DNA of 57,118 nucleotides, the filler included, from Basidiobolus ranarum (Eukaryota), in assembly GCA_040143965.1 (NCBI GenBank). It is 5 parts of 5 records of this genome, joined end to end, with 100 filler letters (N's around TTAATTAATTAA, not from the genome) between each part and the next. Parts side by side here need not be neighbours in the genome. Positions count along the whole stretch, not along the records: positions 1 to 11,383 come from JASJQH010007494.1; 4 more parts are not named here. One strand, 5' to 3'. The translations under genes and the position numbers were made by a program. This document shows positions 1,264 through 56,708 of this stretch, one piece after another (within the stretch, counting starts at the first letter, position 1; each line of letters begins with the position of its first letter). The notes below the pieces were generated by a model. That model was not told the DNA's origin. It saw only the letters and a program-made list of their open reading frames with translations, and searched no databases.

Positions 1264-2351
1264 TTCTTAGGGTTAGCTACTTCCCCATACTCACACCTAA
1301 AGTTTTAGCTTATTCGCCAGAGACCGTCGTCACCGTTCTTCTAGTCCATTCACCAATTAAAATTAACTCACCCGGACTTGGTACACTTGAAGCAATGTAA
1401 GGGTACCGATAACAAATCCTCGTAGAACTGTTTACAATCTCTTAAGAGATATAAATGAGAATTCTTGGTACCCATCCTACCACTAATAGTCAATATCATC
1501 ACCAGATGCTGCCGATTTTTGTCTTATTCCGGTTAATGGTCTCTTTGCGTTAAGATGTAGCGGGAAGTACATACCTATGCATATGTGCTACTGCCAAAGA
1601 GTGTAGAAGTTACTTCGGTTTAAGCCGTAAATCAGCGGTTGGAGCATTGAAGAGAACTGGAAAGTAAACTGAAGAGCTTATGCAATCATATTTACGTCAC
1701 AGATGGAAGTGAACACCGTAGTTGGTGCATGTTATTGCTCAAGTAAAGTTATACTTTAGCCCACTTCATAGTGATACCACTGCTCATCTTATCATGACGA
1801 CGATGTGTTAATTGTTTAGTTCATAGGCATAGAGGTTACTCATGTCATCTACTATATGGAATAGCTATCCTTTGTAAATTGTGGAACTGTTATCCTTTTC
1901 AGATTTCAAATAGGTATCCGGATAAATTTCGGAAGTAATATTCAAGAGCAGCAATCTTCCATTCAGCAGTGCTTTTAGAGCAACAGATTCTCCCAATATA
2001 TGATGATAAACACTGAATTCGCTGGATTAACTCAGGCAACAAGGCTAAGTAGCATGCTTGCGTAACTTATTACTGAAGTATGGAATGATATTCTGCACTG
2101 GTTAGAGTAGTTTCATTTTTATCCTGTTACAGAAGAAACATAGCCTTATACAATATGGTTATCATAATGACAAATGGAATCAAGTGTTCAATTTTTGCCC
2201 AACAAGTTGTTCACTAAGAGACCAGAGCTCGCGGGCATTTGCTTCAAAATTTCGAAACACAAATCTGGGTTATGTTCAAGCATGAACTTGGAGTGACGGT
2301 CACTTTACTAGCCAACCAGCAATGATGGGAAAATGAGGCAGAATGTGAAAA

Positions 2352-2640
2352 TATAGAGCAGTGGGCACTTTTGTTTGTTGATTGTATGCATATAGACAGA
2401 ATGTCATTATTTTTGATTATTGATTATGTACCCACCACACTCTCATGCAAGCATTCATTCTTGCGCCTAAGCCACTAACCTTGCACCTTGTCACAAATGA
2501 ATCTGTCAAATCCACTATATTCAGATGAACTAAGCCACAACCTGAGCAAACATATGAGATAAGTGAACAAAGATATTGCAGATAAATTATGTAATTCATT
2601 GCTGTAACTTGTCAGTTTTTTTAAGAGTACAAGCTTGGAG
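2352..2640 (+). repeat. Dispersed ~290-bp repeat R2, copy 1
   Basis: Colinear with 22244-22545. Both copies start TATAGAGCAGTGGGCACTTTTGTTT and share e.g. cacactctcatg, gcattcattcttg and aattcattgctgtaact. Confidence 0.85.
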
Positions 2641-2649
2641 AATTCCATC

Positions 2650-3938
2650 ACCAGCCACTTGGATAAAAAAGCAGTATAGGGAACCATTATTGACCTCACA
2701 TCAGAGGCCATGACACCACAAGGAAAAAGTAAGTCAACGAAGTTTAGAGGTATGATGTACACAGATGGTGTAGGTGTGTCATGGAACCACAATACAAAGA
2801 AGAAGGGTGGCAGTGGTGGTGCAAAGCCAAAGTCTCTTGCTTCAGCAGAGGAGTTTCAGCATGTGGAAAAGTTGGGAAGAGAGGAGTTGAAGGTCAGGGT
2901 TGGCTAATGTGTGCTACTTGATCCTGGACGTCGCAACTTACTGTACTGTACGCACGAAGAAAGTACTGCTGAACACAAAATGGTTTACCGATATACAAGC
3001 AACCAAAAAGCAATTGAAACAAAATATAGAAAATTCAGGAAGCTCAGAGAGAACTTAAAAACAAACCAAGTCATCACAGCTGAGTGTTCTCTATCGCATT
3101 TGAAATCTTCAACTGCCAACAAAGACAAGTTTGCTAAGTATCTTCCAGAAAAAGCCAAAGTCACTTTGGTCATGAGAGCATGTTACTCAAATGAAGATCA
3201 CCCTGCAGGAGAAGACCGGCGTACCAGCGGTTTGTTACCTTTTAGAAAAATGAAGCTCTCAAGTTTCATTAGCCAACTACAATCAGACAAATGGCTTGTC
3301 AAGAATCTTCGAGAGAAGTTTGGTAAGGATACTATATTAATACTTGGTGACTGGTCAGCTGGAAATGAAAGTATCATGAGCCCAATAGAGGCGTCGGAAG
3401 GAGAAAAATGTTAGCCAAAGAAGGCTTCTAGCTACACTCCTTGACGAGTTTAAAATTTCAAGCCTACTGGTCAGAATGGTGAACTGGAAAAGTCTCAAAA
3501 AGTCCAAAATCCTAGATTATACAAAAGAGAAAAGTAACCTATTGTGTATCGTCACGGCCTTTTAAGGTAAATGCTTTTTATATGCAAGTAAAAAATTCAA
3601 ACCTAATTTCTGTTCAGGTGTAAAAACCAACAGTGTTTGAAGGTCGTGACCAATACTACTGAAGATTCTCCCCTTTGTCTTTGGCTGCTACTTTGAACTT
3701 TAGACATATCCTTTTTAACTTGCGCTCAAATGGGTAAACAACTGGGGAAAGACCAGAACGGTTTTGCCAGAACCTCTCTCCACCGGGTATAAAAGAAAGG
3801 ATATCTCGTCAGCTAGCAGCAGTCGACCAACTCAAAAAGCAAACAATCCTGTGTGGTTATTGCTACACTAAACATTCGATAGAGTAAGTTTCTTTTACCA
3901 TGTGTCTGAGCTTATCTCCAACTTTTTGCGATGGTCCC
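2650..3938 (+). mobile_element. Degenerate Fanzor1 (eukaryotic TnpB/OMEGA RuvC nuclease) element, 5'-truncated pseudogene
   Basis: Translation across frameshifts: ..FRGMMYTDGVGVS..VG*CVLLDPGRRNLLYC (RuvC-I DPG 2920-2928)..FRKMKLSSFI..LILGDWS (3346-3357)..KYHEP.RG.G.RKML.KEGF..LDEFK.SS (RuvC-II, 3443-3451)..NPR..HGLLR/intron 3567-3617/CKNQQC..LW(NRD missing)LAATLNFRHIL..ERPERF. In-frame stops at 2677, 2905, 3429 and 3535. Confidence 0.85.
3845..3938 (+). ncRNA. Candidate Fanzor omegaRNA scaffold and element 3' end
   Basis: Lies directly downstream of the Fanzor coding relic. Contains hairpins GTGTGGT-TATT-GCTACAC (3851-3868) and GTAAG-TTTCT-TTTAC (3884-3898), then ..AACTTTTTGCGATGGTCCC before an AT-rich flank. 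The boundary is inferred. Confidence 0.35.
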
Positions 3939-4420
3939 ATTGATTTTTTTAGTTCCTCTCATTTTAGATTAAAACACTGTATTTAGCCTTGAATGACGTA
4001 CCATTTGAGACTTGCTGGTTTTTATGCTACATCATAAATGAAAGGTTTATTCACAGTTGGATAGAAGAGAACAATGAGTAGCAACAACATCTAGGCACAG
4101 TGGTTAATTTGATGGTATCTTAATCGTCAAAGGTATATAATCAAAGGTAGGTAGATCATTTTAGTTAACAAGTAAAGACTCTACGTAAGCGTACGTTAAG
4201 TACACAAATTGAAAGAAGTGTAACAGAAAGATCAAAGAGAAAGAAGTATACAACAAAGTGAGTGGATAGAAAGAATCCACAGGAGAAAAAAAGTTTGGAT
4301 ATTACACAAAAGAGAGATGGTCCAAAGGAAAAATATGAATATACTTGGTTACATCTCATTTTTCATATGAACCGACTTTACAGAAGAATATACCGATAGA
4401 AGAGCAAGGCGGATAGTTTG

Positions 4421-5269
4421 TTAAACATGAGTGACAGAAACAATAGCACCTAATGAGGAATTTCTTCGTCTGTTCGAGGTAGTAAAACCGATGGCTTCTA
4501 CCTCTTCTTGAACTGGAGATAACTTTACGGGGTCCGAGCCACTTCTCAATCTAAAAGCTTTATTACGTCCAAAAGTCTGACTGACGCTGTCCAGCAGATC
4601 CTGCATACTTCCACGACGTACTTTTCTCCTTCCAGCATTTTCTGAAATAGTAGGCTTCGAAGGAAACTCTGATTCTAATGGTGAGAGTGGTGGAGAAACA
4701 TACTTATCACTATTATCAAGGATGGATTCTACCGAAGGGTTTTGTAGCAACCGAGCGATGTCGTGAAAATGCTTAGCTAGGGCAATAGATAAAGGAGTAC
4801 TACCATATTTATCAGGAATATCGGCAAATGCCCCATAGCTTAGCAAAAGCACAACTGTACGCATACAACCATTGGCACAAGCATAGTGTAAAGGCGTACT
4901 CCCATTTCCAGTAGTATTGATTCCTACTCCACAATCGGCTGACTCTCCGCTATAGCGACGAGAGAATCTATCAGGGGTGAGGATAAGTATAATTGACGTA
5001 AAGAAAATCTGCAATATCATTTACCTTCTAGCGTTGACATCAGCGCCTCTGTCAATTAGATATTTAACTACTGCAGGATTACCGCTACAACAAGCAGCGT
5101 GAATGGGGAGAACACCATTTACTACTGAATTTATGCTTTGACCGTGGTCCAAAGCAAATTTGACCAGACCTAAGTTACCACTAGCTGCGCCAGAGTGAAG
5201 GCCCAAATTGAGAAAAGGCCTAGTTTTCGGTTTGTTTGGTTTAAATACAGGTTTACTGAGTTTGTTCAT
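4421..5269 (-). CDS. Ankyrin-repeat protein (2 exons)
   Basis: Ankyrin motifs LHSGAASGNLGLVKFAL, PIHAACCSGNPAVVKYLIDRGADVN, TPLHYACANG and TPLSIA. A GT-AG intron at 5024-4968 joins the two ORFs in frame. Confidence 0.85.
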
Positions 5270-6528: not shown

Positions 6529-7373
6529 ATGGACATTTCTGAAAGCCAAGGTAAAAGCACTATCCTTTAGACTCTGGTTGGAGGATATTCACACTCTATA
6601 ATTGTAGGTTACGATTCATCTGATTCTCTTAAAAAAGATCAACGGCCTTCCGCGCTGGACAAACATGTGGAATTCTTTGACCGAGACGGCGACGGTGTTA
6701 TAGCCCCTTGGGACACTTTCTTTGGTACAGTACATTTCAGTTCATTCCCTTTTTCGACTTGACGTTAACATGCTCGTAGCCATCAGATCTTTAGGCTCAA
6801 ATATCATTGTAACGGCTATAGCTACAATCGTGTTACATGTGCTGTTCAGCTGGGTCACCCAAGATGGTTGGCTTCCTAGTCCCTTCTTTTACATCTACGT
6901 AAAAAACATACGAAGAGGAAAATACGGCTCTGACTCGGGGGTTTATGACGAAGAAGGACGCCTTGCCAAAAATAAATTCGAAGAAATATTTCAAAAATTC
7001 GATACAGAAAAGAAAGGGGCACTTACACTTACTCAGTGCTACCACTGGACCGAATCCTCTCGTCGTATGCTCGATCCCGTTGGATGGTAAGTTTCTGTAA
7101 CATGCAGAGTATATCACTTGTAGAGATGGAAGTAACAGAGCTTTTGAAAATCCTAGGGCCATTGCCAAGATTAAGTTTGGACTGCTGTGGTTGATTGCTT
7201 CACGTAATGGCCTTGTCACTCGGGAAACTTTAGAAAGCATGTATGACGGTACATTGTTTGAAAAAATGGCTGCTGGTGACGCTAGACCAAGTTACGCTGA
7301 GATCACACGCAGTTACGGACCGCAGGAGTCTCAAGTTCGTCATAGAAATGGAGCCGCTCAGAACGATCAGTAA
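6529..7373 (+). CDS. Caleosin/peroxygenase family protein (4 exons)
   Basis: Exons 6529-6550, 6608-6724, 6780-7086, 7157-7373. Motifs LDKHVEFFDRDGDGVI (EF hand), hydrophobic segment plus WLPSPFF, GSDSGVYDEEGR, DPVGW and MYDGTLF. Confidence 0.9.
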
Positions 7374-9085: not shown

Positions 9086-10342
9086 TTATGAATGAATGAC
9101 GAAAGTATCACAATCATTCGATTGATCCAAGTAGTAAAAATTAAAGTTAGAGAGGGTGTTAGAGGGTAATTCCGGGACTTCGCAATAAGTTGGTAATTCA
9201 ATCTGTTCTGCAGAGATATCCAATAAATGTACTTTCAATTCTATCTCTGTCAAACTTTGAACCAGTTCTGCGGTATCTTTGTTGGCAATATTTTTATCAA
9301 AGAACATGTTAAATCCGTCCGTCCATTCTGAAAATTGTGTCTCTACTGGTGTGTAATATTCCGTCAATGTAATATCTGGCCCATACATCAACGAAAAGTT
9401 GTGAACATTACTCATCCCAGGGATTCCTCCAACCACCACAGTGGACGGTTTACGAATAAGTGAATTAGCTGCAGAGCCAGTGACGATACTCGTTACAAGA
9501 GATAAGTCGACTGAATGAAATTATAGAATAATTATCTTCGTATACCATAGCTCGTGGAGTTTAATACTATGAAAAATTTTACCTTTCTCTGGTAGCTGCT
9601 CTAGAGTTAGCTTGCCTGGCAAAATGTTACCAGACTCAGCATAGTGTAGATGTTTTCGGTTTGGGGAAAGTTTATAATAACGATACGTCGGTTTCCCTTT
9701 GGTTTTTATCGGAGTCGAATTAAACTAAGCTCCATTCAGAAGACAACTGATCCTCTTCTCTTTAACGAATTGGTAGCTCTCTTTGTATAAGCGTTCTCTC
9801 AAATTTCTAACCACAATGAAATATCCCAATGAGAAACGGGATCAATATTGAATCTGACCAAGTATCAAAAGGGCACGACGTTGGAAATCTTACCTTACTG
9901 CTAGTTTAGACAGAAAATCATCCTCCTGTTCCAACTCTTCGAGTTGTCGCTCTCTAACTACGTGATAAGGTACTTCCAACATAGATTGCTCAAATTGATA
10001 TAGGTAAATTTGCGGTTCATCTTTTAGTGTGAAGAAGATTTGTGATCTGATCAAAACCGAAACCTTCGCAAAATCGGTGAACGTAGCTTTCATCTCAGTC
10101 CACATACGAAAGAAAGCTTTCACCGTGATATCATGAACGTTATCAAATACTAACAGAAGAGGCTGAACCGCGGTTGTATCTTAAATGAAAACAAGTTTAT
10201 ATTATTCATAGCTTCGAGATTTCAACAACGTCGTAAGAAATACTTACAACTAACATTAATGTTCCAATAGTCGCATAATAGCTCTATTACCTCAATACAC
10301 ATCTTCGCGAAAGGACAGCAATGTTCAAAATGTCTGTTAGCT
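9086..10342 (-). pseudogene. ELMO/CED-12 family protein, C-terminal part (end of ELMO domain plus PH domain), 5'-truncated with an in-frame stop
   Basis: CPFAKMCIEVIELLCDYW/..AFFRMWTEMKAT..DFAKVS..RERQLEELEQEDD..R/NLRERLYKESYQFVKEKRISCLLNGA*F..YYKLSPNRKHLHY..LPEK. TAG at 9725-9727 sits where Trp is expected. Similarity stops at ~10342. Confidence 0.75.
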
Positions 10343-11303: not shown

Positions 11304-11383
11304 TTGTTGAAATTAGCATTGCCTAAACACCTATATAGTCATATATAGCTTAGTATTTAGTTATCCTATATTGGGCAAAGATA
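11304..11383 (-). repeat. Dispersed repeat R1, copy 2 (cut by contig end)
   Basis: The reverse complement reads ..ataactaaatactaagctatatatgactatataggtgtttaggcaatgctaatttcaac, matching 358-417. Confidence 0.8.
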
Positions 11384-11483
11384 NNNNNNNNNNNNNNNNN
11401 NNNNNNNNNNNNNNNNNNNNNNNNNNNTTAATTAATTAANNNNNNNNNNNNNNNNNNNNNNNNNNNNNNNNNNNNNNNNNNNN
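11384..11483. other. Artificial contig linker (N44-TTAATTAATTAA-N44)
   Basis: 100-bp N run with a central stop-codon palindrome, identical to the other three linkers. Confidence 0.98.
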
Positions 11484-17916: not shown

Positions 17917-20900
17917 CTAACGCTTCTCCTTCACAAACATTTGTAGACATATAAACGATAGAACGATAAAAACGCAGAACATCACCGAGAGTTTCACCAC
18001 GTCAGGCCAATAATTCGCCGCGTTAAATCCAAACGTAGATAGAATCGTGGCCCCAGGGATATCAATTTGCAAGCCATACTTTTTCTCGGTTAATTGAAGA
18101 TATTTCATCTCGTTGACAAGCATGGCTTCAAATGCGTAATTGAAAAATGAAAGATCCTTTAGCCATTGCAGGTATAGTGGAATAGAATCCTTATTCAATA
18201 GTAATCCACCAAATAACATACTGAATAACATCATAAGGCTACTCAACAGATTGGCTACCGAGATTTCCTGGAATAGAATTCCTAGGAATAGTGAAATACT
18301 TGCAGCGGTCAAGTTGAATAGCACAAGTACCAACAAAAATCTCAGGAAATGCTCCAATCCAGGCGCTAAGCCAACCATGTTATATATAATCACTCCAAGT
18401 AAAATCGGTGGGATGACTCGCAGTGGAACAATATCAAACATAACCTTGGAAGCGAAATAAGTTATAGGGGAGTAATAGCCATTGGCACGTTCTCGTACAA
18501 ATAAGATTCTTTCGCTAGCGAATACCTGCAATGAAGTCAGGCATCCAAATCCAAACAAAGCACATACAAAGAAAAATACTCCCATACGATTTTGGAATCC
18601 AGCGATATCATTAGTAACTTGATAGAACAAGAGACCACATAACACGGCCAAAAAAACACTGATCACATAATGGGTTAACATAAGATACGGATTTCTGTAC
18701 AGGTTCTTAAACGTACGATCTGACAAAATCCGATATTGTGTATACCAGGAGGAACGTCGGTAAGTTCCAATAGTATGTATTGGTGCGCCATCAATTTGAT
18801 TCAACCCAGCCAGTCGCTCAATCTCATCTGTAACACTGTGTGCCAAAACACTACGCTTGTATTCTCTAACCAGCATCAATAGATGACTGGACATTCCTTG
18901 GATTACCTCGGCACCTCTGGAAGTAGTGGCGGAACTTTGACTACCACCAGTCCAGGGACTCACCTCAGTTTGCCAAGGATTATTGGCTTCAGGTGGCGTT
19001 GAAATAGAAGGCAGATCATCGAAGGGGTTGACGGAGGATGTACGACGAGGGGAGTATAAAGAATCTTCTTGCATAATACGAATAGAGCGTCTACGATTAC
19101 TGTGAGAGGCTTCTGCTTCATCCAAATGATTGGAATTAGATAATCCAGGAATGAGTTCTTCATCCTCGAAATCTTCTTCTGGAGGTTTCACTGCATGCTT
19201 GCTCAAGTCAACTATAAAATCAGCGATATTGAAACCAAGGGGACAAGGATGACCAATATTCTCAAAATGAGAACGGGCTTTAGAAGCCATACCAGAGTAA
19301 ATCATCCACCCATCAGCCAAGAGAACCAATTGATCAAATAGAGTGAAGATATTACTACGTGGTTGATGAATGGTAAATATCACTGTTCTGTTGTAATTAC
19401 GAGCCAGTGTGACTAAGCATTCGATAACATTATAAGCATTGTAAGCATCTAAGCCAGAGGTAGGCTCGTCAAGGAAAAGAATAGATGGAGATGTAACAAG
19501 TTCACATGCGATAGAGACGCGACGTTTTTCACCACCAGAAATACCACGCGAACCCGAATCTCCAATGAAACTATCCTTAATTCCCAAAATACCCAATTCA
19601 GACATAGTTTCATATACACGATTCTTTTTAGCTTCTGCTGACATTTCACGTGGGAGTCGTAATAGAGCAGAGTAAAGAATGGTTTCATAAACTGTTAATG
19701 TAGGCATTAGAGTATCTTCTTGGTCAACATAACCAACTACTCTCTTAAATTGTGAATCACTGACTATTCTTCCATTGACGAAGATATCCCCAGTGACTAG
19801 CCCAGATTTATTCTTGCGTGCGAGAATGTCCAAGAATGTTGTTTTACCAGCGCCTGCTCAACATTTATTGAATTTGATGTATAATAGATACCGTTTAGTT
19901 GAGCATATTTGCTGCTTGTGATAAATAAATAAACTCTACCAGAAGCGCCCATGATAGCCATCACTTGGCCAGGCTTTACAATACCGTGTACATTGTTTAA
20001 AACCTGCTTCTTTCCAACAACGTAATTAACTCCTCTAAACATCAAGGCTGTTGGTGTATGATTATCCATCAGTTTACCAGCTTCATCATCCGGATTGTAC
20101 TGGCCAAGAAGTAAATAATCCCTAGAATTATCTTTGTTCTTTCGGACAAGATATATTGCACCTAAATAACAATTATTAAACAAAAGTGACAAAGCAAATA
20201 TCTAATAATATCACATACCAGCACCAACTCCAAGAATAAAAATCAACACAGAAGCAATTGAAATGATCATAAGAGATGTGTTTTTAGGTTTTTCAGGTCT
20301 CTGTAAGAGTTTCGGGATAATTACTTGATCTAAGATGTAAAATAGATACAGTAGAGATGCCAACTTACAATATATCCAGGAACCTGAGTATAATGTAGGC
20401 ACTCTCCAGAGTGACAATTCAAAGTAATGTAAGAATCACCGAATACCGACAAGATCAAGTCGTTCATTGCAGGTTCTAGCAAATAGTACAGAATTCAACA
20501 CTATGTCTACAATTACGAGATTATGATTGCCTGGTGTACCCTCAAATTTACACCCATCCTCAGTGTTACATTTGAAGGATGCAGGTCCTTTTATCTCTTC
20601 CTCCAAAAATTCAGAAATATCTAAATAAAGTTATAGGGATTCAGTTGATGTATACTTTCTTTGATGTGGCTGTTATATACATACCGATGGACCCTTCTTT
20701 ACCACAAAGCATCTCATTAGTCATACACTTGCAACGAATATTAGAACATGTATAATACGTTGCATTTCCATTGTAACTACGATCTAAAAAAGTGAGACGT
20801 TTTGAATCAGTTATCAATGAAATGGCATCCTGTTACTATCATAGATGTTCACCTTCACGAAATTCGCAATGATCGAGGGTACAATAAAATGATTCGATTT

Positions 20901-21833: not shown

Positions 21834-22243
21834 CAATCAGAACCAAAAAGCTTGATATAAAGAGGCTTTAGAAACGTAACCAAACTTTATGTTGACTTGG
21901 ACTATATAAAAGAAAGTAGGTAGAATAAGGATGATCTTTGCAACTGATTAGACTCGTTTGAGATCGTAACTCAGTATTTGTGAACCCTAAACCTTATACA
22001 GTGTTTTACTCTAAAATTAAAATTAGACGATTCACCTTTTCTTCTGGGACGTGTACAACACAAAAAAAGGGATGATTTGCTCTTATTTTTGAGACAAAAC
22101 CCGGTTCTTTTTCAGACATTATTTGTCATCGTTTAATCAAAATAATCTGCTATCAGTGATGTATTTAAGAAAAAGTTATAATAAAAGAAATGGCGTCAGT
22201 TCGTTTTTCTCTTCCTTTTCTTTATAGAACCACCTCTAAAGAT

Positions 22244-22545
22244 TATAGAGCAGTGGGCACTTTTGTTTATTAATCATATGCATATAGACAGAACGTCGTC
22301 ATTTATAATCATTAATTATATACCCATCACACTCTCATGTTGGCATTCATTCTTGTGCCTAAGCTACCAATCTTGTACCTTAGGCACAAATGAATGAATC
22401 AGTCAAATCCACCAAATCCAGCTGAGCTAAGCCACTACCTAAGCAAACGTAATAAAATGACTATGAGATAAATGAACAAAACAATTGTAGACAAATTGTG
22501 CAATTCATTGCTGTAACTCGTCATGTTTTTTGAGAGTATATGCTT
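22244..22545 (+). repeat. Dispersed repeat R2, copy 2, between two copies of a ~60-bp host segment
   Basis: Homologous to 2352-2640. The exact 22-bp GAACCACCTCTAAAGATTATAG occurs at 22227-22248 and 22611-22632. Confidence 0.85.
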
Positions 22546-22828
22546 AACAAACCTTTCTATCTGTAAACTAAAAAAGAGGTCAATTTGCTGTTTCTCTTCT
22601 TCTCTTTATGGAACCACCTCTAAAGATTATAGCAGCCAAAAGCTCAATCGCTGGTATTGGGTGGAAACCACGGTACGTTCCGCTTCTCAAATCACTCGTG
22701 GCTAATGTTCATATCCCTGTAACGCACACGTTCACCTTTTTGAAGTACATTTTTATTCAAGAATTGGAAAATGACCCTGCCTTTGCCCTGGAAAATTTTT
22801 CCAACGTTGATTTTTACAGAGAAGTCTT

Positions 22829-22928
22829 NNNNNNNNNNNNNNNNNNNNNNNNNNNNNNNNNNNNNNNNNNNNTTAATTAATTAANNNNNNNNNNNNNNNN
22901 NNNNNNNNNNNNNNNNNNNNNNNNNNNN
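22829..22928. other. Artificial contig linker
   Basis: N44-TTAATTAATTAA-N44. Confidence 0.98.
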
Positions 22929-25900
22929 CGTGATTAGTGGTTGGGACACTTCCTGAACTGGCCACACTTCCATATCTAAGCTTTGAGCATAATCATCCAA
23001 CATGGAACTCCATTGCATGAAAGACATCGACTTGTAACCGCATTCTTTTCCTTGAAGCAGTTGCTCAAGATCTTCCCAAATAATTCGCCACGAGACGAGA
23101 TCAATGACAAAATGATGCACAGTCATGAACAGCAACTGCTTTCCATCATTAAGGTCGTACAGTGATATTTGGAAGAGAGGGCCTGAGAAAAGATTGAGAC
23201 TACGTTGGAGTTGATTGATATTCTCTTTGAGTCCATCGATTGATTCAACCTTGGTGTGATGAATCTTATATTGTACTTGTTCGATCGGCAGTATTTTGAT
23301 TTGCCATTGATCTCCAGAATAGGCAAAACGACTGCGAAGTAATTCATGATGTTGAAGTAAGGATGAAATAGCCATATTTAAACTTTGTGTAGCTATAGAA
23401 TCTCTCAGCTTGAGCAACCAGGACTGATTGAAGTGATGTATATTTGACTGGGGAGTATCTAAGAAATGCTTTAGAATCGGTGTGAGACGAACTTCACCTT
23501 GTGAGATATGATGCGATTCCACAAGCTTAACATTGATCGGAGTGATCACTGATGCTTGTGCCCGAATGGTGGGATTCTGCATGATCTGCTTCACAGAAAG
23601 TGAAAATCCATTTTGGCGACTTGAAGATGATACACGAATGGCTGAAATCGAATCACCACCTAGCTGATAGAATGAATCGTCGATGCTAATACTAGACGCG
23701 GTAATATTCAGAATCTGTGACCAGATGCCTTGAATCATTTGCTCAATTGAAGTTAAAGAAGAGTCTTGTTCATTCACACCGCCATTTTGGACACTTATGA
23801 CTGCCTCTAGACTCAAAGTCCCAAAGAAAGTAGAAAGCCTTTTGCGATCGATCTTCCCACTTGTGTTGATTGGGATTGAGCCAAGGGGAACCCATATATT
23901 TGGCACCATATATGATGGGAGTCGCTTTCTCACAAGGCTCTTCAGCTCTTTCATGTGTACTGTGGCGATTTCCGCACTTGATCCAGACAATACTTCCAAA
24001 GTTTGGTTGTCATCGATGAAATCAGAGAACGCCAAAAACGCAACTAGTGACTTCCGATTTGTAGATTGGTCAGTGATTAAAGGAAGTACACAAGCTCTTG
24101 TTACTTTTGAGTGACCATAAAGAGCATGCTCTATCTCATCCAACTCAATTCGCAAACCATTAAGTTTGATTTGGTTGTCCTTCCGGCCAATCAGTTCCAC
24201 TGATCCGTCAGAGTTGAAGCGAGCTAAGTCACCAGTGCGGTATAATCGCTCATTATCATCAAGAGGATTCAGCACGAACGCTTTCTCCGTAAGATCGGGA
24301 CGATTAAGATAGCCACGAGCAAGTTGAGGACCACTTACGCACAGTTCACCAACGACTCCTATAGGGACTGGGTGCATATCCAAACCTAAAATATGTATCT
24401 TGTTACTCCCAATTGGTTTCCCGATATTACTGCACGAGACTTCTTCATATAAGTTGTGGTTCACTAAAATTGCAATCGCCGCTTCTGTAGGACCATATAC
24501 ATTGCTCAACTCTACTGTAGAGGCCCATGCACTCAGTATGGAGGAGGTTAGCATTTCCCCTCCAATCATTAAGCATTTTACAGAAGGAACGTGTTCAGGC
24601 TGTATAGTGCCTGCAATAGTAGTTGTCAACATCATGAATGTCACATTCATCTGATTGATGCAATCTTCAAGTCGGGATAGTAGATTTTCCTTTTCGGCGA
24701 TTGCGATACAAGCGCCGACTGCAAGTGTTCCAAAGATCTCGATAACAGATACATCGAAGGTATAATTGGCGAATTGCAAAACCGAATCATCTAAGGTCGG
24801 GTTCCATACCTCTTTGTGAGCATATATTGAGCTTACCACTGCTGAATGCTCCATCAATACACCTTTAGGAGTACCTGTAGAGCCAGAGGTATAAAGGACG
24901 TAACATAAGTTTGATGGGGTGAGTCCACTTACTTCAGGGTTACTAATTAATTTTTGTTGGATGGGCTCATCATCAATATCGAGAAGAACCAAGAGTTGGT
25001 TAGCATATGGTACCTTGTACCGGTCTAGTGTCACTACCAACTGAGCTTTGGTCTCATCGAGGATAAAAAGGTTCCGTTCCACTGGATTGTTTGGATCAAG
25101 CGGAACATAGGCTCCACCAGCTTTGAGAACGGCGAGCATTGCGACTATCATGGATACCGACTTGTCGAGACACAAAGTTACCATCGACTCAGGACGGGCA
25201 CCAAGCTCGATCAAATGGTGAGCTAACTGATTAGCCCTTCTGTTAAGCTCACCGTAAGTGACAGATTCTGAAGTCTCAAACTGTACTGCTATATTGTCGG
25301 GGTGAAGAGCTGCGTGCTCCTCCACTGTATGATGAAGGCATGTTTCATTTCTTTTCATGTAGCCCAATGGACAACTGAAAGATTCACGTGCTTGATTCGA
25401 ATCAATATTAGGAATCTCACATTTTGCATCGTAAACGAGTTGTGTATCGCTCAAATCATTATTGAACTTCTCTCCTTTAGTGCTCGATGCCAATCTTGTT
25501 GCAAAGGATTTGATTAAGCTCTTTTCAGCAAATGACATCTCTGGAATAGCAGTTACTTTGGTGTCGTGGTCCGCCATGATAATAGCATCGATTATACAAT
25601 TCAACCGGTCCAAGATGCAATTCGCTATCTCATGCGTTATTGTCTCATTGGCATAGTCTAGTCGTAAATACAGTTCCTCTGTTTCAGTCCAAGCATTGAG
25701 GCCTATCTTATATTCGGTGGGTTCTCTGATGCTTTCTGCTTCGAAAGTTCTCGGATGATTGACATCATCTTTACTATCTGACGACTGAAAGTTAAGAATC
25801 GCGTCAAACTCTAGTGAATCGTTATTGGATCTCGACCAGTGCTTAATCTTTCGCAAACTACAAGTTTCATAGGGTATTCTATCTATTGTCTGCTGGTGAA

Positions 25901-28900
25901 GACTTTGTAGCCAGCCCACGATGGTGTTACCTTTACTGTATTGAATTCTGACCAGAGTAGTATTTATACAGGGCCCGATAACTAGCTCGATGTTCTTCAT
26001 AGGTATATTTCGACCATTCGTAAGAATCCCATAAATAATATCATCTTTTTCATAATAAGGTCGCAATACTAACCCCCAAGCCGCTTGCAAAATGGTAAGT
26101 AAAGTGATTCCAATTGTTTTTGAAAATTCTTTCAATTTTTTTGTCGGGATTCGACATTTTGATAAAAGCTGATAGTTCTTCACTAAAGTTCTATTCACGA
26201 CACCAAGTTTCGGGAATACACAGGGCTCTATAGCGGCTAGATACGATATCCAATAATCAGAACCGTCCTCACTATCAAATAGGTCATCATGTTTGTTACG
26301 GTATGAAATATAGTCCTTGTACGGTATCACTGCTGGCCTCGTAGAATTGTTATAAACTGCCTCCAAAAGAGTCATAGTGATTTTATCTGACCAGCCATCA
26401 TTGATTGCATGGTGGCGAGAAATGATCATTTGGGCCTTTTTCCCATATATTATACACAGGCGTATATTGGGTTTACCGAGCGGAAATCCTTTGGCCACAT
26501 CTTCTTCAAGATATTTTTTCAAAATGGCGTCATTGTCGCAGTTTTCAGCAGTTATAGATTCAAACACCAAATCGATATCCCGCAAGACAATTTGAAGATA
26601 AGCTTGAGTTGTAGTCGAGGTACTTGGATTGCTAATGAATACTGTTCTCAATATTGGAAGGTCGTGAATTACTATTTTCCAAGCGGAGATTAAGCCGTCA
26701 ATTTCCAGTCCAGCATCGGTAACATTGTATACATCTTGTACATGATAAAAAGCGGGCGACTGGATATTTCCAAGGATTAGGCCTTCTTGAATAGGCGAAC
26801 AAGGATATATATCCTCGATGTTCTGCACTAGATCAGGTCCGTATTGTAATGATATTTGATGCATAAACTCATCCAGCTCGTGAGTATTCAAAGCTAGAAG
26901 AGGAAGATCCGAAATGGTAAACTCTCTCTCCTTTTTGTTTGCACAAGTATAAATGGTCTCCATCATGTTCTTCTTCCACGATTCCGACCATTGGGTGATT
27001 TGGGCTGCTCGGTGAAGAGCTGAACTGTAGGATATTGAGGCGCACAACTTATTATTGTGCAGAGTAACTTCGACTTCTATAGCATTCATTCTTCTCCATT
27101 TTGGACCAATCATATTCAAATCAAATTTGTATTCATCTTCGACATCTTGAAACAAAGAATTGGTCTTCTCTAGATACTGAAATCTTCCGAAATAATTGAA
27201 GCCGACTTGCAAACTGTCATTGCAAAACTGAGCCGACTGTTTCTCATTCAAGTAACGAAGAAGTCCATAGTTAAGTCCACGAGCAGGAATACCTTTACGA
27301 ATGTCTTTCGTTCGTTTTAGTACATCGATCATGGAATCTTCTGGATTACTTTCAATAGTGATCGGGTATATGGAGGTGAACCAACCAACGGTTCGGGAAA
27401 TATCTAAGGAATCATCCCACGGTTCACGACCATGACCCTCGGTTGCAATCGAAAGCGAACTCGAGTTGAACGTAGTGCAATATGAGGAAGCCAGAGAAGA
27501 AAGCATGAAATCCACTGCCTCTGTTCTATAAACGTCGTTGCTTAGCCCAAAGATGAGCTTTGTGTATTCACTGTCTAATGTGAATGATGATGTGTGCACA
27601 GTCTCCATCGTATTTAGGTGTAGCAAGGATTCATCTACCTTGAAAGGAACCATTGGCACCTGTTTCGGCCAGTTCTCAATACTCAATGATTCAGCATGAT
27701 GTCTTAGCAGGTTACTCCAATTTCTGAACGATAATGTTTTGTGGGATAAGGATTGTCCTCTTAGTAATTTCTCTAGATCTTCCCAGATAATACGCCACGA
27801 AACCAAATCTATGATATAGTGATGGATGGTCATGAACATGAGCTGCTCACCAGATGGTAAATCATACAGAACAAAGGATGATACCGGCCCTGTCTCAATG
27901 TTAAGGCTGGTTTGTACCCGATGCACACTCGATCTCAACTCTTCTATACCTGAAGCATGCTGATGCTCAACCTCAAAGTTAGTGTCGTTACTAGATGCCA
28001 ACCATTGCCTCCAATGATTACCATCGTGGCAGAAACGAGTCCGTAGCATGTCATGGTGACATGTAAGCTCGGAAAGTGCTGCTTTCAATTTAGTGAGATG
28101 TATAGGAGACTGAACTTTCACTAACCACGATAAATGAAAATGATGGATATCTGACTGTTCGACTCCAAAAAACTGACATTGAATAGGAGTGAAAGGAATA
28201 TCACTTTCTTCATCTTCCACCAGCTTCTGTTTTTCTAATTCAATCGTGGTAAACTGGGCGTAATTTGCAAGTTGATGAATAGTCGGATGCTGAAGAATGC
28301 TTTGTACGGATACCTCGACCCCAACTTGACGGCATTGTGAAGATATTTGAATTGCTGAAATCGAATCGCCACCTAAATAATAGAAGGAATCGCCGGGCCC
28401 TATTCTAGATTTCGCAATATTAAGCACATCTCCCCAAACTTCCTGCAATAGCTCTTCCATTGGAGAAAGTAACACCTCTTGAGCCCCCTTCATCATCTGG
28501 ACGAGTTCACCACCGATTTCTTTACTATTATTTTCATGTAGTAATTCTAGCATTCGAAAGTCAGTTTTGCCGCTTGCATTGATTGGCATCTGTGACAGAG
28601 GGATCCATACAGTTGGTACCATATATTGAGGTAATCTATTTCGAACTAGTTCTTGAATATGAGTGATTTCGGCATCTATAATCGAAACTGGTTCATCTGA
28701 GGATATCATATGTGTCAAGGTGAAGAAAGCCACAAGAACATTCTTTTCCTTTGATGAACTGAAATTCTTCTTGAGCAACCTCACTGATGCTTGGAAAACC
28801 TGCGGAGAATGAAGTAACGCATGTTCTATCTCACCTATTTCGATCCTTAGTCCGTTCAGCTTGATTTGATTATCTTTACGCCCAAGAATAGTGATTGAGC

Positions 28901-30825
28901 CATCAGGATTAAATCTCCCTAAATCCCCGGTTCTGTATAAACGCTCTCCAATAGCAAATGGAGACTCAACGAAGACTTCTTCGGTAAGTTCAGGCCTGTT
29001 TAAATACCCGCGAGCAAGCTGCGGGCCTCCAATACAAAGCTCACCTACTGCTCCCGGTGGAAGCAACTCCAATCTGTCATTGAGAATAAACACTTTGTTG
29101 CGACCAATCGGCCTGCCAATATTAGTGCAAGATGTGTGTTGACTCAACGACTCCCTTATTATGGCATAAACAGTTGTTTCAGTTGGTCCATAGCCGTTAT
29201 GAAAAGTAACTTTACTAGTCCAAGAATCGCGAACGGAGTTTGTTAACATCTCACCTCCTTGTTGAAGCAGCCTAAGAGTAGGCACTTCGGTCGGATTTAA
29301 CAGACCTGCAACAGTGGTAGTTAATTGGGCGGCAGTAACCTTCATAAGGTTTGCCATCTTGGGCAAATTTGTGAGTAAGTTATTCTTGGAGGCTAAACAT
29401 ATGCGTGACCCTATAGTCAAATTCACAAATAAATCAAGAACGGATGCATCGAATGTATAGTTAGAGAACTGAAGAAAGCGGTCACTCTGCGTCAAATTAA
29501 GGATTTTTTGATGGGCAGCTACGTAGTTAACCACATTACGATGTTCCAACATAACTCCCTTGGGCTTTCCTGTTGTACCTGACGTGAAAATCAAGTAGCA
29601 AAGATTGGATGATTTCAATTGTGGAACCACTGGATTAATCTCCGATGTTTCGATGCATTTGAGCTCGCTTTGATCCATCATCACCAGCTGAATACTTGGA
29701 GACTCACTAAATACGCCTGCTAGGCTACTGGTTGTGATGCAAAAACGAGCAGCTGTATCTTTTAAAATATAAGAAATACGCTCTTTGGGGTATTCTGCAT
29801 CAAGTGGAACATACGCAGCACCAGCTTTCAGAACGGCCAAGATAGCAACAACCATATCAACTGATTTCTCAATACATAATGGTACCAACTCGTCAGGAAC
29901 TACACCCAGATGGATAAAATGATGAGCCAACTTGTTAGCTCGATTGTTTAACTCGGCATAAGTGACCCATTCTTTATCCTCAAACTGAAGAGCGATGTTG
30001 TCAGGAGTGGCTTCTACTTGTCTTTCTACAAGGTGGTGTATGCAGTAATCATCGAGCTCTCTGACGAAGTCAGCTTTTCCTTGCTGCCACTCAGTAAGCA
30101 ATAAGTTTTTTTCTTTTTCCGAAGTCCAATTCAATAGCTTCAAAGGACGATCAAGGTTATGTACTAGTATAGTGGCTATGTGAGCAAATTGATCAGAAAG
30201 AAGCTGCCCGTGTTCTAACTCAAGATAGCTGCTTGAGAAAGTGAACTGAGCATCGAGGCTATCTCCATTAAGCCATCCTTCTATGAAACTCACGAACTAT
30301 ATCAAATGGTTGGAAGGTAGGTTAGCTTATATACAAATACTGGCTTATGAGCAAATGTACCTCCAAGTTGAGTATGTCTAGCGATGTCTCTTGATCGCTA
30401 TATGCAACATAAGTATTAAACGAGTTATTATCGGATAAATAGGTAGCACTGCTAGAGCTAATGCTTCCCGCTTTTGCTAGCTCCTTTATCCAATCAGCAA
30501 CAAGTAAATTCTCAGTTCTTTCATCGTAGATTGACTGAAGCACCTCGAAATCCTTCACAGTCAACTGGGAATGCGGCTCGAGAAGGTCATTGGCTCCAAA
30601 CGTGATTTCGGAATGCTTTGTATATAGATTAAGTAGAATTATCCAAACGGCATGAAGGAGACTCTTTTCCAGACCAAGCAGCTCTTTCAAAGTAGAATGG
30701 CGGTAGATTCGGTCCATTGATACGATGTTTGCCTTCCTAACACGGAATATATCGCTCTCCCCACCCTTCTTTCTTTCACCGTTAATTAAGCGTGGCAATT
30801 GGCAAGCAAAATGTGAAGTATTCAT
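22929..30825 (-). CDS. Multimodular non-ribosomal peptide synthetase, 3'-truncated by contig end: partial C - A1 - T1 - E1 - C - A2 - T2 - E2...
   Basis: Exon 1 30825-30361, GT-AG intron 30360-30297, then >7.3 kb open. A-domain cores YLIFTSGTTGKPKG / YVLYTSGSTGTPKG, YGPTE, YRTGD; T domains LGGDSI (x2); E domains HHYIIDLVSW with EGHGRE and RTVGWFT, and HHFVIDLVSW; C domain DIYPCSPIQEG..HHAINDGWS. Confidence 0.96.
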
Positions 30826-34265: not shown

Positions 34266-34365
34266 NNNNNNNNNNNNNNNNNNNNNNNNNNNNNNNNNNN
34301 NNNNNNNNNTTAATTAATTAANNNNNNNNNNNNNNNNNNNNNNNNNNNNNNNNNNNNNNNNNNNN
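34266..34365. other. Artificial contig linker
   Basis: N44-TTAATTAATTAA-N44. Confidence 0.98.
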
Positions 34366-45694: not shown

Positions 45695-45794
45695 NNNNNN
45701 NNNNNNNNNNNNNNNNNNNNNNNNNNNNNNNNNNNNNNTTAATTAATTAANNNNNNNNNNNNNNNNNNNNNNNNNNNNNNNNNNNNNNNNNNNN
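45695..45794. other. Artificial contig linker
   Basis: N44-TTAATTAATTAA-N44. Confidence 0.98.
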
Positions 45795-53376: not shown

Positions 53377-56300
53377 ATGGCCCCGAATACTGAAGTACTT
53401 ACCGCAACTCCTGCTCAGCAAACTATCGTAGTTGTTGGGCTCGGAATGGTCGCCGTTTCCTTCATTGAAAAAGTTCTCAGCTATGATACCGCTCATATGT
53501 ACACCATCAAGGTCTTTGGTGATGAACCCGAGGGTATGTCTAGGTTTATTAATCCCAAAATCACATGCCAATGATACTAATTTCTCATAACAGTTGCTTA
53601 TAATCGTGTCGGTTTGACTCAATACTTCGCTCATCGCGACCCCAACAAACAGTTGATGAAGCCCCGTGAGTGGTACACCGAAAATAATGTTGAAGTCCAC
53701 TTGGGCGACCTTGTTGAAGAGATCGATACTGTCGGTCAGCGTATTCGTGCCAACAAGAGTGGATGGGTTAATTACGATATCTGTGTCATTGCCACTGGTT
53801 CGTCTGCTGCAGTTCCCCCAGGTGTCCCCCCTATGGATAGCGTGGGTGGTATCTTCGTTTACCGTACTCTAGAAGATCTTGAAAAGATCATCGCTTGGAC
53901 CAACCGTGAAAACGTAAAGCGTGCTACTATTGTTGGTGGTGGTCTCCTCGGTCTTGAAGCTGCTAAGGCTGCTAAGGATCTCGGTCTCGAAACTACTGTA
54001 TACGAACGTACTGACCGCCTTATGATGCGCCAATTGGATGGTGAAGCATCCCGCCTTTTGGAAGCTGAAATTGCCAAACTCGGTCTTACCTCAATTGTGG
54101 GTGATTGCCCGATGGGTCTGGATCAATCGGATGATGATCTAGATGCCACAAGAAAGAAGATCTGCGGTTTCACCACTGCTGCTGGTCTCAAAGTCGAGAC
54201 TGATATGCTCATTTACTCTATCGGTATTCGTCCTCGTGATCAATTGGCTCGTGAATCTAACGGTGCCATTCAGCTCGGTGAACGTGGTGGTATCATGGTA
54301 GATAATCAACTTCGTACCTCCGCTGAAAACGTCTACGCTATTGGAGAGTGCGCTAACTACAAAGGCATGTGCTACGGTTTGGTCGCCCCTTGCTACGATA
54401 CTGCTGAAGCTGTTGCTCGCAATCTCACCACCCGTCTTCATGAACCCGAAGCCGATAAGGCTACTTTCAAGGGCTCTGATATGTCAACCAAATTAAAGTT
54501 GATGGGTGTAAATGTAGCTTCTTTCGGTAACCCTTTCCCTGATGAGGCTACTCATCAAGCCCTTGTTTACCGCGATCCTTTCTCTGGCGTTTACAAGAAG
54601 TATCAATTCACCAAGGACGGAAAGCGCTTGGTTGGTGGTATGATGGTTGGTGATACCAAGGACTACACCAAGGTTCTTTCCATGAGTCGCTCCTCCAAGA
54701 ATTTGGATTGCGATCCCTCTGAGCTTATTTTGGGTACTCAAACTGAAGCTGGTGGCAATGGTACTGATTCGTTACCTGATGATGCTCAAATTTGTTCTTG
54801 CTTAAATGTCACTAAGGGTGAAATTCGTAAGGCCATCAAAGAGAAGAACTGTACTAGTGTCGATCAAGTAAAGGTTTGCACCAAAGCCGGTACTGGTTGT
54901 GGTGGTTGTGTTCCTCAAGTGACTGAAATCTTCGAATCCGAAATGAAATCTATGGGTAAAACTGTTAGCAATAGTTTATGCTCCCATTTCAAATACAGCC
55001 GTGCCGAACTTTACACTATCTGTAAAGTTAAGGGATTGAAAACTTTCAAAGATATCGCTCGTGAAGCCTCCACTAATCCCGCTACCGCTGGTTGTGAAAT
55101 TTGTAAGCCTGCCGCTGCTTCAATCTTGTCTTCCTTGTGGAATGAGCATATTTTGTCCGCTGACCTTGCTTCTCTTCAAGAAACAAACGATCGTTATCTC
55201 GCTAATATTCAACGTGGTGGTCTCTACTCTGTTGTACCCCGTATGCCCGGTGGTGAAGTCACCCCCGAAGGTTTAAGTGCGATTGCCGAGGTGACCAAGG
55301 AGTACAATTTGTACAACAAGATTACAGGTGCTCAGCGTTTCGATTTGTTCGGTGCCAGAAAGGAAGATTTGCCCAAAATTTGGGAGAAACTTGTCGATGC
55401 AGGCTTTGAAAGGTAAATAACTTTAATATTAGAAATTGTTGAATAGAATTAGATACTTACGGCCCTTTCCTTTCTAAAGTGGTCACGCATACGGTAAATC
55501 TCTTCGTAATGTCAAGTCTTGTGTTGGTTCCACCTGGTGTCGATATGGTCAACAAGATTCTGTTGGCTTCGCTAAGAGGGTAATGAATGATTTGTACTTG
55601 GAAAGAAAAGTACAGTAACTAACCTACCCATTTTTTACTTTAGCTTGAAAACAGATATAGAGGTATTCGTTCCCCTCATAAGCTCAAGGGTGGTGTCTCT
55701 GGCTGTATTCGTGAATGCGCCGAAGCTCAGGGCAAGGATTTCGGTCTGATTGCTACCGATAAGGGTTACAACGTGTACGTTGCAGGTAACGGCGGTACCA
55801 AGCCCAGACACGCCGATTTGTTGGTTGCCGAAGTATCAGAGGAAGATGCTACCAAATACATCGATCGTTATTTGATGTATTATGTCATGACTGCTGATAG
55901 ACTTCAACGTACTGCCAGATGGATGGAGAAATTGCCCGGAGGTGTTAAATATCTTCGTAAGGTAATTATGGACGATCATCTTGGTATCTGTGCTGAGTTA
56001 GATAAGCAGATGGAGAGCTTAGTCGATACCTTCCAATGTGAATGGCGCACTGTCGTCAAGAACCCAGAATTGAGAAAACAATTCGAGGAGTTTGTCAATA
56101 CTAAGGAAAGTGGTGGTCCTCTCATCGAAATGATCAATCAGCCTCCCCGCCCTGCTGACTGGCCCAAGGTAGTTCCTGCTCTTCCTTCTTTGAAGAAGAA
56201 GGTTACCTCCATGGAATGGATGAACGTCGGTTCCACCGAATTGTATCCTCTGGATCAGGGTAAGGTCGTGCTTATTGGTAATACCCAGATTGCTGTCTTC

Positions 56301-56708
56301 CATACTAGTGACGACAAGTGGTATGCTACCCAGAACATGTGCCCTGTCAAGCGCGATCTTGTATTATCCGGAGGTATCCTTGGTTTCCGTAGCACCGAGA
56401 ATGGAGACGAGAGCTACATCTGCTGTCCTATCCACAAGGTATATATCTTTATTATAATCCTCTTCACTTGTATTTCTGATTTGCTAATCCCGTGATTATA
56501 GAAAAGCTTTGATCTCAAAACTGGTAACTGCCTCAGCGATGACAACCTCCACATTGAATCATTCAACGTTAAGGTCGAGGAAGGACAAGTCCACCTTGAA
56601 TTACCTCCCGTCGAAATCCTTAACAAAGTTCTATCGACAAAGAAGATTATGATTAAGCAATCTATGAATGCTAAACGTGCCAGCACCGAAATGGACATGG
56701 ATTGGTAA
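53377..56708 (+). CDS. niiA: NAD(P)H-dependent siroheme nitrite reductase (NirB-NirD-type fusion, fungal niiA type), 5 exons
   Basis: FAD motif VVVGLGMV, AYNRVGL, NAD motif IVGGGLLGLEAA, BFD-like Fe-S motifs CSC..GTGCGGC and C.H..GCEICKP, siroheme/4Fe-4S motifs CVGSTWC and SGCIREC, C-terminal Rieske-like domain. Introns 53534-53593, 55413-55479, 55580-55643, 56439-56500. Confidence 0.95.

Follow-up and report, generated by a model that had tools for sequence, protein, structure and literature searches.

A probable Fanzor1 pseudogene in the remains of a non-autonomous DNA transposon from a Basidiobolus ranarum assembly

Background

Fanzor1 proteins are TnpB-like, omega-RNA-guided DNA endonucleases of eukaryotes whose active site comprises the RuvC-I aspartate, an alternative glutamate and the RuvC-III aspartate (PMC10530073). 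Here we describe a relative of these nucleases from a stretch of 57,118 bases of a Basidiobolus ranarum assembly (the window, along whose full length all positions are counted), in which positions 2635-3871 of the plus strand are very probably a dead, 5'-truncated Fanzor1 pseudogene within what is left of a short non-autonomous DNA transposon. The Fanzor1 motif delineated by Bao and Jurka in 2013 is D..[TS][TS]..C4..RD, with the additional conserved residues G500 and E536 (PMC3627910). According to Jiang et al. (2023), a glycine or proline replaces the RuvC-II glutamate, and the alternative glutamate is located about 45 residues away (PMC10530073).

PpFz1 from Parasitella parasitica (PDB entries 9cf0-9cf3; Xu et al. 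2024, PMC11423790), which belongs to the same family as the window copies and is the nearest enzyme to have been characterised, recognizes a 5'-ATN target-adjacent motif (TAM) and has a 75-nucleotide (nt) omega-RNA with stems of 7 bp and 4 bp, and its structures have been solved by cryo-electron microscopy (PMC11423790). PpFz1 and the intact relatives of the window copies share the motifs DPGRRDLLYC, LPFRKMK, LGNWSA, DEFRTSS, HGLLRCKN..C and LWNRD. Between the RuvC-I and RuvC-II parts, PpFz1 contains an insertion of about 105 residues (by position, the published FRI domain), whereas the window copy and its intact relative P0002, a protein of Rhizopus arrhizus, have only about 10 residues there; two other relatives, P0038 and P0043, carry a PpFz1-like insertion. 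Moreover, PpFz1 is active, whereas the window copy is missing the N-terminal third, one CxxC pair and the RuvC-III aspartate. SpuFz1 from the chytrid Spizellomyces punctatus (PDB 8gkh) shows the same RuvC/TNB layout but is much more distant, and differs in its TAM and in the length of its omega-RNA (PMC11423790).

The closest full-length relatives of the window copy are the Rhizopus Fanzor1 proteins (P0002-P0006, hypothetical proteins of R. arrhizus/delemar) and the Rhizopus-like element L001, with 62-66% protein identity and about 81% DNA identity over the relic. The intron site and the core of the terminal repeat of L001 are common to the window copy, whereas the leader differs. The 'ROr' families of Rhizopus described by Bao and Jurka (2013) belong to the same group of relatives; ROr-4, the one for which the text gives the ends, is described as MuDR-like with 9-bp duplications and does not fit the ends of L001 (PMC3627910). 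Fanzor1-only elements with Mariner terminal inverted repeats (TIRs) and TA duplications have been reported as well, and these (e.g., PUl-4) combine a transposase-less Fanzor1 open reading frame (ORF), inverted repeats and TA flanks, as seen here (PMC3627910); for the window carrier, the ORFs scanned revealed neither a DDE transposase nor an autonomous relative. Fanzor1 has been known from Rhizopus, Mucor and Phycomyces since 2013, with several paralogous families per genome (PMC3627910). The relic is a Fanzor1 of the Mucorales type, that is, a member of an already known family, of which a dead copy is an ordinary find.

Results and discussion

A Fanzor1 relic spread over three reading frames

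The pseudogene (2635-3871, plus strand) represents the C-terminal 60% or so of a Fanzor1 protein, namely the end of the WED domain, the RuvC domain, the TNB zinc finger and the C-terminal tail, and its successive parts are read in frames 1, 3, 2, 1, 3 and 2. An initial annotation, made from the sequence alone, had outlined a fossil Fanzor1 at 2650-3790 from eight ordered motifs scattered over several frames. All eight are present on the plus strand in the order given: TDGVGVS (2761-2781, frame 1), DPGRRNLLYC (2920-2949, frame 1), FRKMKLS (3241-3261, frame 1), LILGDWS (3337-3357, frame 1), EPNRGVGRRKMLAKEGF (3378-3428, frame 3), DEFKIS (3443-3460, frame 2), HGLLR (3553-3567, frame 1), which is followed by a 51-nt intron and then by the retained second cysteine pair of the zinc finger, CKNQQC (3619-3636), and AATLN (3684-3698, frame 3). 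The locus had thus been correctly placed but too narrowly delimited, given that the coding relic covers 2635-3871 and the element extends to 3979.

A phmmer search of all PDB sequences started with the longest open piece of the relic (2908-3411, 168 amino acids) identifies the Fanzor1 proteins of P. parasitica (E = 1.6e-26) and S. punctatus (E = 1.7e-12), whereas the entry ranked next has an E-value of 0.92. When the longest stretch of the relic, with one stop read as X (P0001), is compared with 629 longer candidate proteins, 22 of these match at E<=1e-3, including 20 from Mucorales, one from Coemansia and one JGI protein; the best match is a Rhizopus arrhizus protein with 66% identity (E = 2e-93). 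An exhaustive search of representative proteins yields 767 proteins at E<=1e-3, 220 of them at E<=1e-10. In the opposite direction, a tblastn search with P0002 aligns residues 175-505 to positions 2635-3663 (E = 5e-114), residues 413-549 to 3351-3782 and residues 548-577 to 3770-3853, and these matches are colinear and spread over three frames of the window. The intact P0002 itself is similar to PpFz1 (E = 1.6e-140) and to SpuFz1 (E = 3e-50) among PDB sequences. Judged on the sequence, the motif set combined with this homology far exceeds chance, and the homology to experimentally characterised Fanzor1 proteins bears out the initial description of the locus as a dead Fanzor1 fossil.

The arrangement of the catalytic residues proposed in the initial annotation (RuvC-I aspartate in DPG, glycine at the RuvC-II position, glutamate in DEF and RuvC-III aspartate in NRD) agrees with the published descriptions (PMC3627910, PMC10530073). 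The codon of the RuvC-I catalytic aspartate, within LLDPGRR, is intact (2920-2922); the relic DPGRR aligns with DPGRRD of PpFz1 and DPNKRD of SpuFz1, and the aspartate column is nearly invariant among the relatives. The glycine codon at the canonical RuvC-II position is present in LILGDWS (3346-3348), and so is the codon of the alternative, or rearranged, catalytic glutamate in LLDEF (3446-3448), now in frame 2. These two residues are separated by about 34 positions in intact relatives and are found in separate frames in the window copy. The NRD codons of RuvC-III are absent (compare LWNRDMAATLNF in P0002), and the [TS][TS]-x-x-C4 zinc finger of the TNB domain is incomplete, with the first CxxC deleted, TSS changed to ISS and CKNQQC retained. 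The missing parts of the zinc finger and the missing RuvC-III aspartate were lost through decay.

Decay of the coding frame

The lesions were catalogued from a DNA alignment of positions 2635-3981 with L001. This near-intact Rhizopus-like element, from a metagenome locus of 4,815 nt, codes for a near-identical counterpart of P0002, from an ATG at 2220 to a stop at 4359-4361, with a 59-nt intron between HGLLR and CKNQQC. The frame of L001 changes in a T run at about 2425-2432 (codons ~70 to ~75), either by a real lesion or by a homopolymer assembly error; the gene model of P0002 begins downstream of this point. Compared with L001, the relic has accumulated 4 nonsense substitutions, 5 frameshifting indels and 5 in-frame indels, and has lost the original stop.

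The nonsense codons are TAG at 2677-2679 (tryptophan in relatives), TAA at 2905-2907 (lysine in relatives), just ahead of the RuvC-I motif, TAG at 3429-3431 (glutamine in relatives) and TAA at 3535-3537 (tyrosine in relatives). The frame is shifted by a 1-nt deletion at 3367/3368 (from frame 1 to 3), a 1-nt deletion at 3436/3437 (3 to 2), a 7-nt deletion at 3466/3467 (2 to 1), which removes the first zinc-finger CxxC (CPSC in P0002), the second cysteine codon of this pair being altered as well, a 13-nt deletion at the junction 3681-3684 (1 to 3), and a 7-nt deletion at 3767/3768 (3 to 2). The 13-nt deletion lies between two TGG triplets and removes the codons N-R-D-(M); the initial annotation had located the loss of the NRD codons at the TTGG overlap 3681-3684, which proves exact. 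In-frame changes include deletions of 9 nt at 2780/2781, 12 nt at 3653/3654 and 6 nt at 3806/3807, a 3-nt insertion near 2845, and a 12-nt insertion (3731-3742) that introduces a further TAA stop (3735-3737). The original stop is altered at 3854-3856, and the frame now ends at a new stop at 3869-3871. The count of at least four stops in the initial annotation was therefore an understatement, although the stops themselves are real: there are four nonsense substitutions, one more stop in the 12-nt insertion, and five frameshifts.

Outside the indels, the relic is about 81% identical to the DNA of L001 (635 of 782 aligned positions, counted by hand over 8 of the first 9 blocks of 100 alignment columns, with block 201-300 left out). 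Between HGLLR and CKNQQC, it retains a GT..AG intron of 51 nt (3567-3617), at the same codon as the 59-nt intron of L001, and the two introns are identical at 44 of 51 aligned positions (86%, hand count), besides an 8-nt gap.

At the 5' side, the protein homology begins abruptly at position 2635, the counterpart of residue 175 in P0002 and of residue 291 in P0007, a longer JGI protein. The first ~290 codons, encoding the N-terminal WED/REC part, are absent from this copy (copy 1). Instead, the Fanzor1 frame sets in at codon ~291 directly after a leader repeat that we designate X (2357-2636, plus strand; repeat families D15 and D19), to which it is fused. X recurs on the second contig of the window (22249-22545) with 83-85% identity, and the window contains the 17-mer at its start at these two places only (0.08 expected). 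It is absent from all 80 loci kept from a scan of metagenome contigs, in which 320 pattern matches yielded 86 confirmed relatives; L001, one of these loci, has no more than a match of about 16 nt located about 95 nt ahead of the ATG. A search for an inverted copy of its start found none, and X does not appear to be an element bounded by TIRs. From the sequence, copy 1 is best read as having undergone an internal deletion, through which the leader came to abut codon ~291 and the remaining leader and about 290 codons were lost.

Given that the continuous frame has been lost through truncation, nonsense substitutions and frameshifts, the window copy is a pseudogene of Fanzor1 and not a functional member of the family. 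Because the N-terminal recognition part, one zinc-binding pair and a catalytic aspartate are all missing, it is dead, transcribed or not. The initial annotation had overlooked the missing 5' part, the intron, the deletion of the first CxxC and the end of the transposon.

A second copy with the 5' part of the gene

Four artificial spacers of the same sequence (44 N, TTAATTAATTAA, 44 N), located at 11384-11483, 22829-22928, 34266-34365 and 45695-45794, divide the window into five pieces of 11,324-11,383 nt, and features cannot be read across them. The relic is located on the first contig (1-11383), and another copy (copy 2) lies at the end of the second. Here the plus strand carries a TA followed by a left TIR, CAGTGTTTTACTCTAAAATTAA (21997-22020), then leader repeat X (22249-22545), upstream of the ATG, and finally the ATG with the first 73 Fanzor1 codons (22608-22828). 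This frame stays open for 220 nt, up to the end of the contig at the spacer 22829-22928, and the apparent gap after copy 2 is accordingly a contig end, not missing sequence. The 73 codons are 74% identical to residues 1-73 of P0007 (tblastn, E = 5e-29), and this N-terminus is similar to PpFz1 among PDB sequences (E = 1.9e-8). A diverged duplicate of the leader end and of the first 9 codons, in which ATA replaces ATG, lies to the left of X (22190-22248), and its partner to the right (22572-22634); these direct duplicates of about 57 nt around X possibly reflect a nested insertion or a partial duplication. Some 2 kb separate the left end of copy 2 from an ABC transporter exon on the minus strand (17917-19857; ABC_tran and ABC2_membrane, E = 1e-45).

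Ends of the carrier

In L001, the gene is located between inverted repeats of about 46 nt, the left one starting with TAGTGTTTTAATCTAAAAT at 1723 and the right one ending with ATTTTAGATTAAAACACTA at 4579, and TA adjoins both repeats. The right half of this element recurs at locus L005, where the flanking sequence differs, which indicates that the element has been mobile. No transposase is encoded inside the 2.86-kb element of L001. Upstream of its left repeat, outside the element, an ORF matches Phage_integrase (tyrosine recombinase) with an E-value of 6e-4, below the cut-off. In both L001 (1-906 on the plus strand and 1484-1729 on the minus strand) and L005 (773-1210, plus strand), the Rhizopus-like Fanzor element is surrounded by other repeats, and a remnant resembling a reverse-transcriptase zinc-binding domain adjoins it in the two loci in different arrangements.

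Downstream of the relic, positions 3872-3979 comprise a 3' non-coding tail and a right TIR, with the core CTCATTTTAGATTAAAACAC at 3958-3977 and the end ...CACTG at 3979; the adjoining TA (3980-3981) is a putative target-site duplication. This 20-mer core, expected 0.03 times by chance in the window, is found without mismatches at the right ends of both copy 1 and L001, and its reverse complement is found with 2 mismatches at the left end of L001 and with 3 mismatches at the left end of copy 2. Overall, TIRs are clear in L001, whereas copy 1 has the right repeat only, plus a degraded candidate for the left one, at 2149-2170, consisting of TA (2149-2150) followed by CAATATGG. This candidate has the 9-mer CCTTATACA in common with the left flank and terminus of copy 2 (21992-22000), but the approximately 200 nt beyond it are only about 54% identical to copy 2 (hand count), and the 20-nt TIR pattern has no match within 3 mismatches at 2149-2170. 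TA flanks are present on both sides of L001 (the 1 complete element of 1), to the right of copy 1 (3980-3981) and to the left of copy 2 (21997-21998). The right TIR together with the TA suggests a non-autonomous carrier of the Tc1/mariner type, an assignment made from the TA and the CAGTG terminus alone.

By this reading, the carrier would be flanked by TA and bounded by TIRs of about 46 nt starting with CAGTG, with its right end at 3979. As inferred from the relatives, the nuclease of a live element would bind a short RNA transcribed from the right end, with the adjoining flank serving as the guide, and would cut DNA next to a short motif by means of a D/E/D RuvC site. By analogy, the omega-RNA scaffold would occupy the last tens of bases ahead of 3979 and run into the flank. 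Copy 1 could take no part in this process: the fusion of the leader to codon ~291 has removed WED/REC, the first CxxC and the RuvC-III aspartate are deleted, and the frame is broken.

Host assignment and possible horizontal transfer

Two fragments from B. ranarum rank closest in the representative search. P0024 (195 amino acids) is 76% identical to the window peptide and 73% identical to Rhizopus P0002, and P0039 (158 amino acids) is internally deleted and frame-shifted. All other close relatives with a named organism come from Mucorales, except for the Coemansia match. In pairwise comparisons over the same 160 residues, which do not amount to a tree, the identity to R. arrhizus is 91% for R. 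delemar, 74% for P0024, 72% for the window copy, 71% for the JGI protein, 67% for P0039, 67% and 63% for R. microsporus, 64% for Helicostylum, 56% for Thamnidium, 54% for Gilbertella, 50% for Cokeromyces, 47% for the insertion-bearing P0038 and P0043, and 40% for Coemansia. Thus, P0024 and the window copy (72-74%) are closer to R. arrhizus than are R. microsporus (63-67%) and the other genera of Mucorales (50-64%), and the Basidiobolus copies fall inside the range of identities seen within Rhizopus, even though the hosts belong to different phyla.

The identity of about 81% to Rhizopus-like DNA in a relic that evolves neutrally, the 86% identity of the introns, the 20/20 match of the TIR core and the occurrence in hosts of different phyla together point to horizontal transfer. 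We consider it about an even bet that a Fanzor1 element with TA flanks and no transposase passed horizontally between Basidiobolus (Basidiobolomycota) and the Rhizopus lineage (Mucoromycota), was amplified in the former and subsequently decayed. The existence of several paralogous Fanzor1 families per genome (PMC3627910) is a caveat to such pairwise comparisons. The spread of RNA-guided nucleases on transposons between lineages has been raised earlier in general terms only (PMC10432273, PMC11423790), and within the part of the literature searched, to which supplements do not belong, no article was found that names Basidiobolus and Fanzor together; nor does Basidiobolus figure in the top 10 of the 120 articles returned by a broader search.

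By inference, the host is a Basidiobolus ranarum-like fungus with several decayed Fanzor1 copies. Both the fully matching protein of the nonribosomal peptide synthetase frame on the third contig (see below) and the two closest Fanzor1 fragments carry the name of this species. Among the four copies seen, none is intact: copy 1, P0024 and P0039 are broken or fragmentary, and the fourth is visible for 73 codons only. The initial annotation had proposed that the genome hosts or hosted a Fanzor family whose intact copies would be new nucleases. This goes too far in two respects: the family is not new, given that Rhizopus Fanzor1 has been on record since 2013 and PpFz1 has been characterised, and no intact copy was seen.

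Alternative readings

Several observations weigh against the interpretation of the locus as a dead Fanzor1 in a transposon remnant. With respect to the family, a local copy of Pfam recognizes no relevant family on any of the 7 relic fragments (the only hit is PX, E = 0.09), and the TNB family PF07282 is detected only below the threshold, on 4 of the 5 whole relatives scanned. With Pfam weak or silent, the family call rests on pairwise and PDB homology; PF26935, a precomputed label on the relatives, is absent from that copy of Pfam. The reference for the lesions, L001, has a 1-nt frame break of its own. With respect to the carrier, alignment of copy 1 with copy 2 and L001 did not reveal a convincing left TIR, and the TA duplication depends on one complete element, L001, the right flank of L005 being ambiguous by one base. 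No transposase family was detected in 10 of the 13 window ORFs of at least 170 amino acids (the scan covered all but a nonribosomal peptide synthetase (NRPS) ORF and two near-duplicate ORFs), nor in the shorter ORFs 9089-9520 and 6704-7087. With respect to the guide RNA, positions 1800-5000 have no match in Rfam, and the predicted folds of the last 100 nt at the right ends of the window copy, L001 and L005 are no better than those of shuffled sequences (z from +0.5 to +1.1).

Among the alternatives, the one that survives best, while still unlikely, is that the pseudogene comes from a contaminating, unsequenced fungus of the Mucorales and not from Basidiobolus, which would make the cross-phylum similarity trivial. 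Apart from P0024 and P0039, the named close relatives are indeed from Mucorales (20 of 22 candidates, 3 of 5 and 8 of 10 clusters), no other Basidiobolus species appears among the relatives, the contigs are small, and the genes of the first contig gave no taxonomic placement, with an ankyrin ORF leading to generic ankyrin proteins and a caleosin exon to EF-hand clusters without recorded taxa. However, the copies show only 62-74% protein identity to any named Mucorales sequence, so that no known contaminant fits, and decayed copies are present on at least 4 separate contigs of the assembly (copies 1 and 2, P0024 and P0039). Small contigs are usual in this assembly, including those with NRPS paralogues of the Basidiobolus type, and another repeat (D12) is common to the first and fifth contigs.

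It is far less probable that the remnant has been exapted, with a guide-like RNA from its right end being used in trans by an intact paralogue, or with the remnant serving as a regulatory sequence. The right-end core is identical to that of the Rhizopus-like element at 20 of 20 positions, compared with about 80% in the coding part; but identity over 20 nt is weak evidence, and neither a structural signal, nor an Rfam family, nor an intact paralogue was seen. The least probable alternative, a live, intron-rich Fanzor1 gene with introns or assembly errors mimicking frameshifts, can appeal to the introns of known Fanzor genes (PMC10530073), to the one real intron at 3567-3617 and to an assembly split into contigs of about 11 kb, but is already largely refuted, because the frame changes coincide with 1-, 7- and 13-nt gaps in colinear coding DNA of about 80% identity without any intron-like extra sequence, each of the four in-frame stops results from the substitution of a single codon, the NRD codons and the first CxxC have been deleted outright, and about 290 N-terminal codons are missing.

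Other features of the window

The third contig contains an intron-less NRPS frame (22929-30296, minus strand) of more than 2,450 residues with condensation, adenylation and carrier domains, according to a precomputed Pfam list. Over the 700 amino acids searched, it matches a B. ranarum protein at 100% identity, and five paralogues from the same species at 46-68%; the rest of the listed matches, at 31-39%, mostly bear bacterial names, with two from Mortierellaceae. This pattern fits a bacterial-type secondary-metabolite gene family expanded in B. ranarum. The fourth contig (34366-45694) carries a tandem array of a diverged gene family, in which repeats D1, D3, D8 and D9 each recur five or six times at intervals of 1.1-3 kb. 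Each unit contains an ORF of about 170-200 amino acids with a signal-peptide-like start, MFASTLISFALLGLGLSA, and two members of the array searched against Pfam match no family. The repeat D12/I7/I12 is found at 170-402 and, inverted and with 87% identity, at 11305-11383, as well as on the fifth contig at 46003-46235 (82%), an indication that dispersed repeats of a single genome form the contig ends. Finally, two adjacent long frames on the plus strand at 53581-56495 encode domains of an assimilatory NAD(P)H nitrite reductase, namely Pyr_redox_2, BFD-like 2Fe-2S, NIR_SIR and Rieske.

Conclusions

Taken alone, the locus adds little, as decayed Fanzor1 copies are expected wherever the family was active, and many of the relatives in databases are partial too (P0007 and P0008 without the C-terminal part, P0024 and P0039 as fragments). 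It does provide a worked example of the death of a copy, through an internal deletion between leader and ORF, deletions of catalytic codons flanked by microhomology, and nonsense substitutions. Only two aspects merit follow-up, namely the possible transfer across phyla and the delimitation of the carrier. The locus ties the Mucorales-type Fanzor1 lineage to a carrier that is flanked by TA and ends in CAGTG, and thereby helps to define where the guide RNA and the TAM of this lineage are to be looked for. Provided that the host has been assigned correctly, the Fanzor1 family would be extended to another fungal phylum, and the transfer, if true, would be a concrete case of an RNA-guided nuclease spreading horizontally on a transposon.

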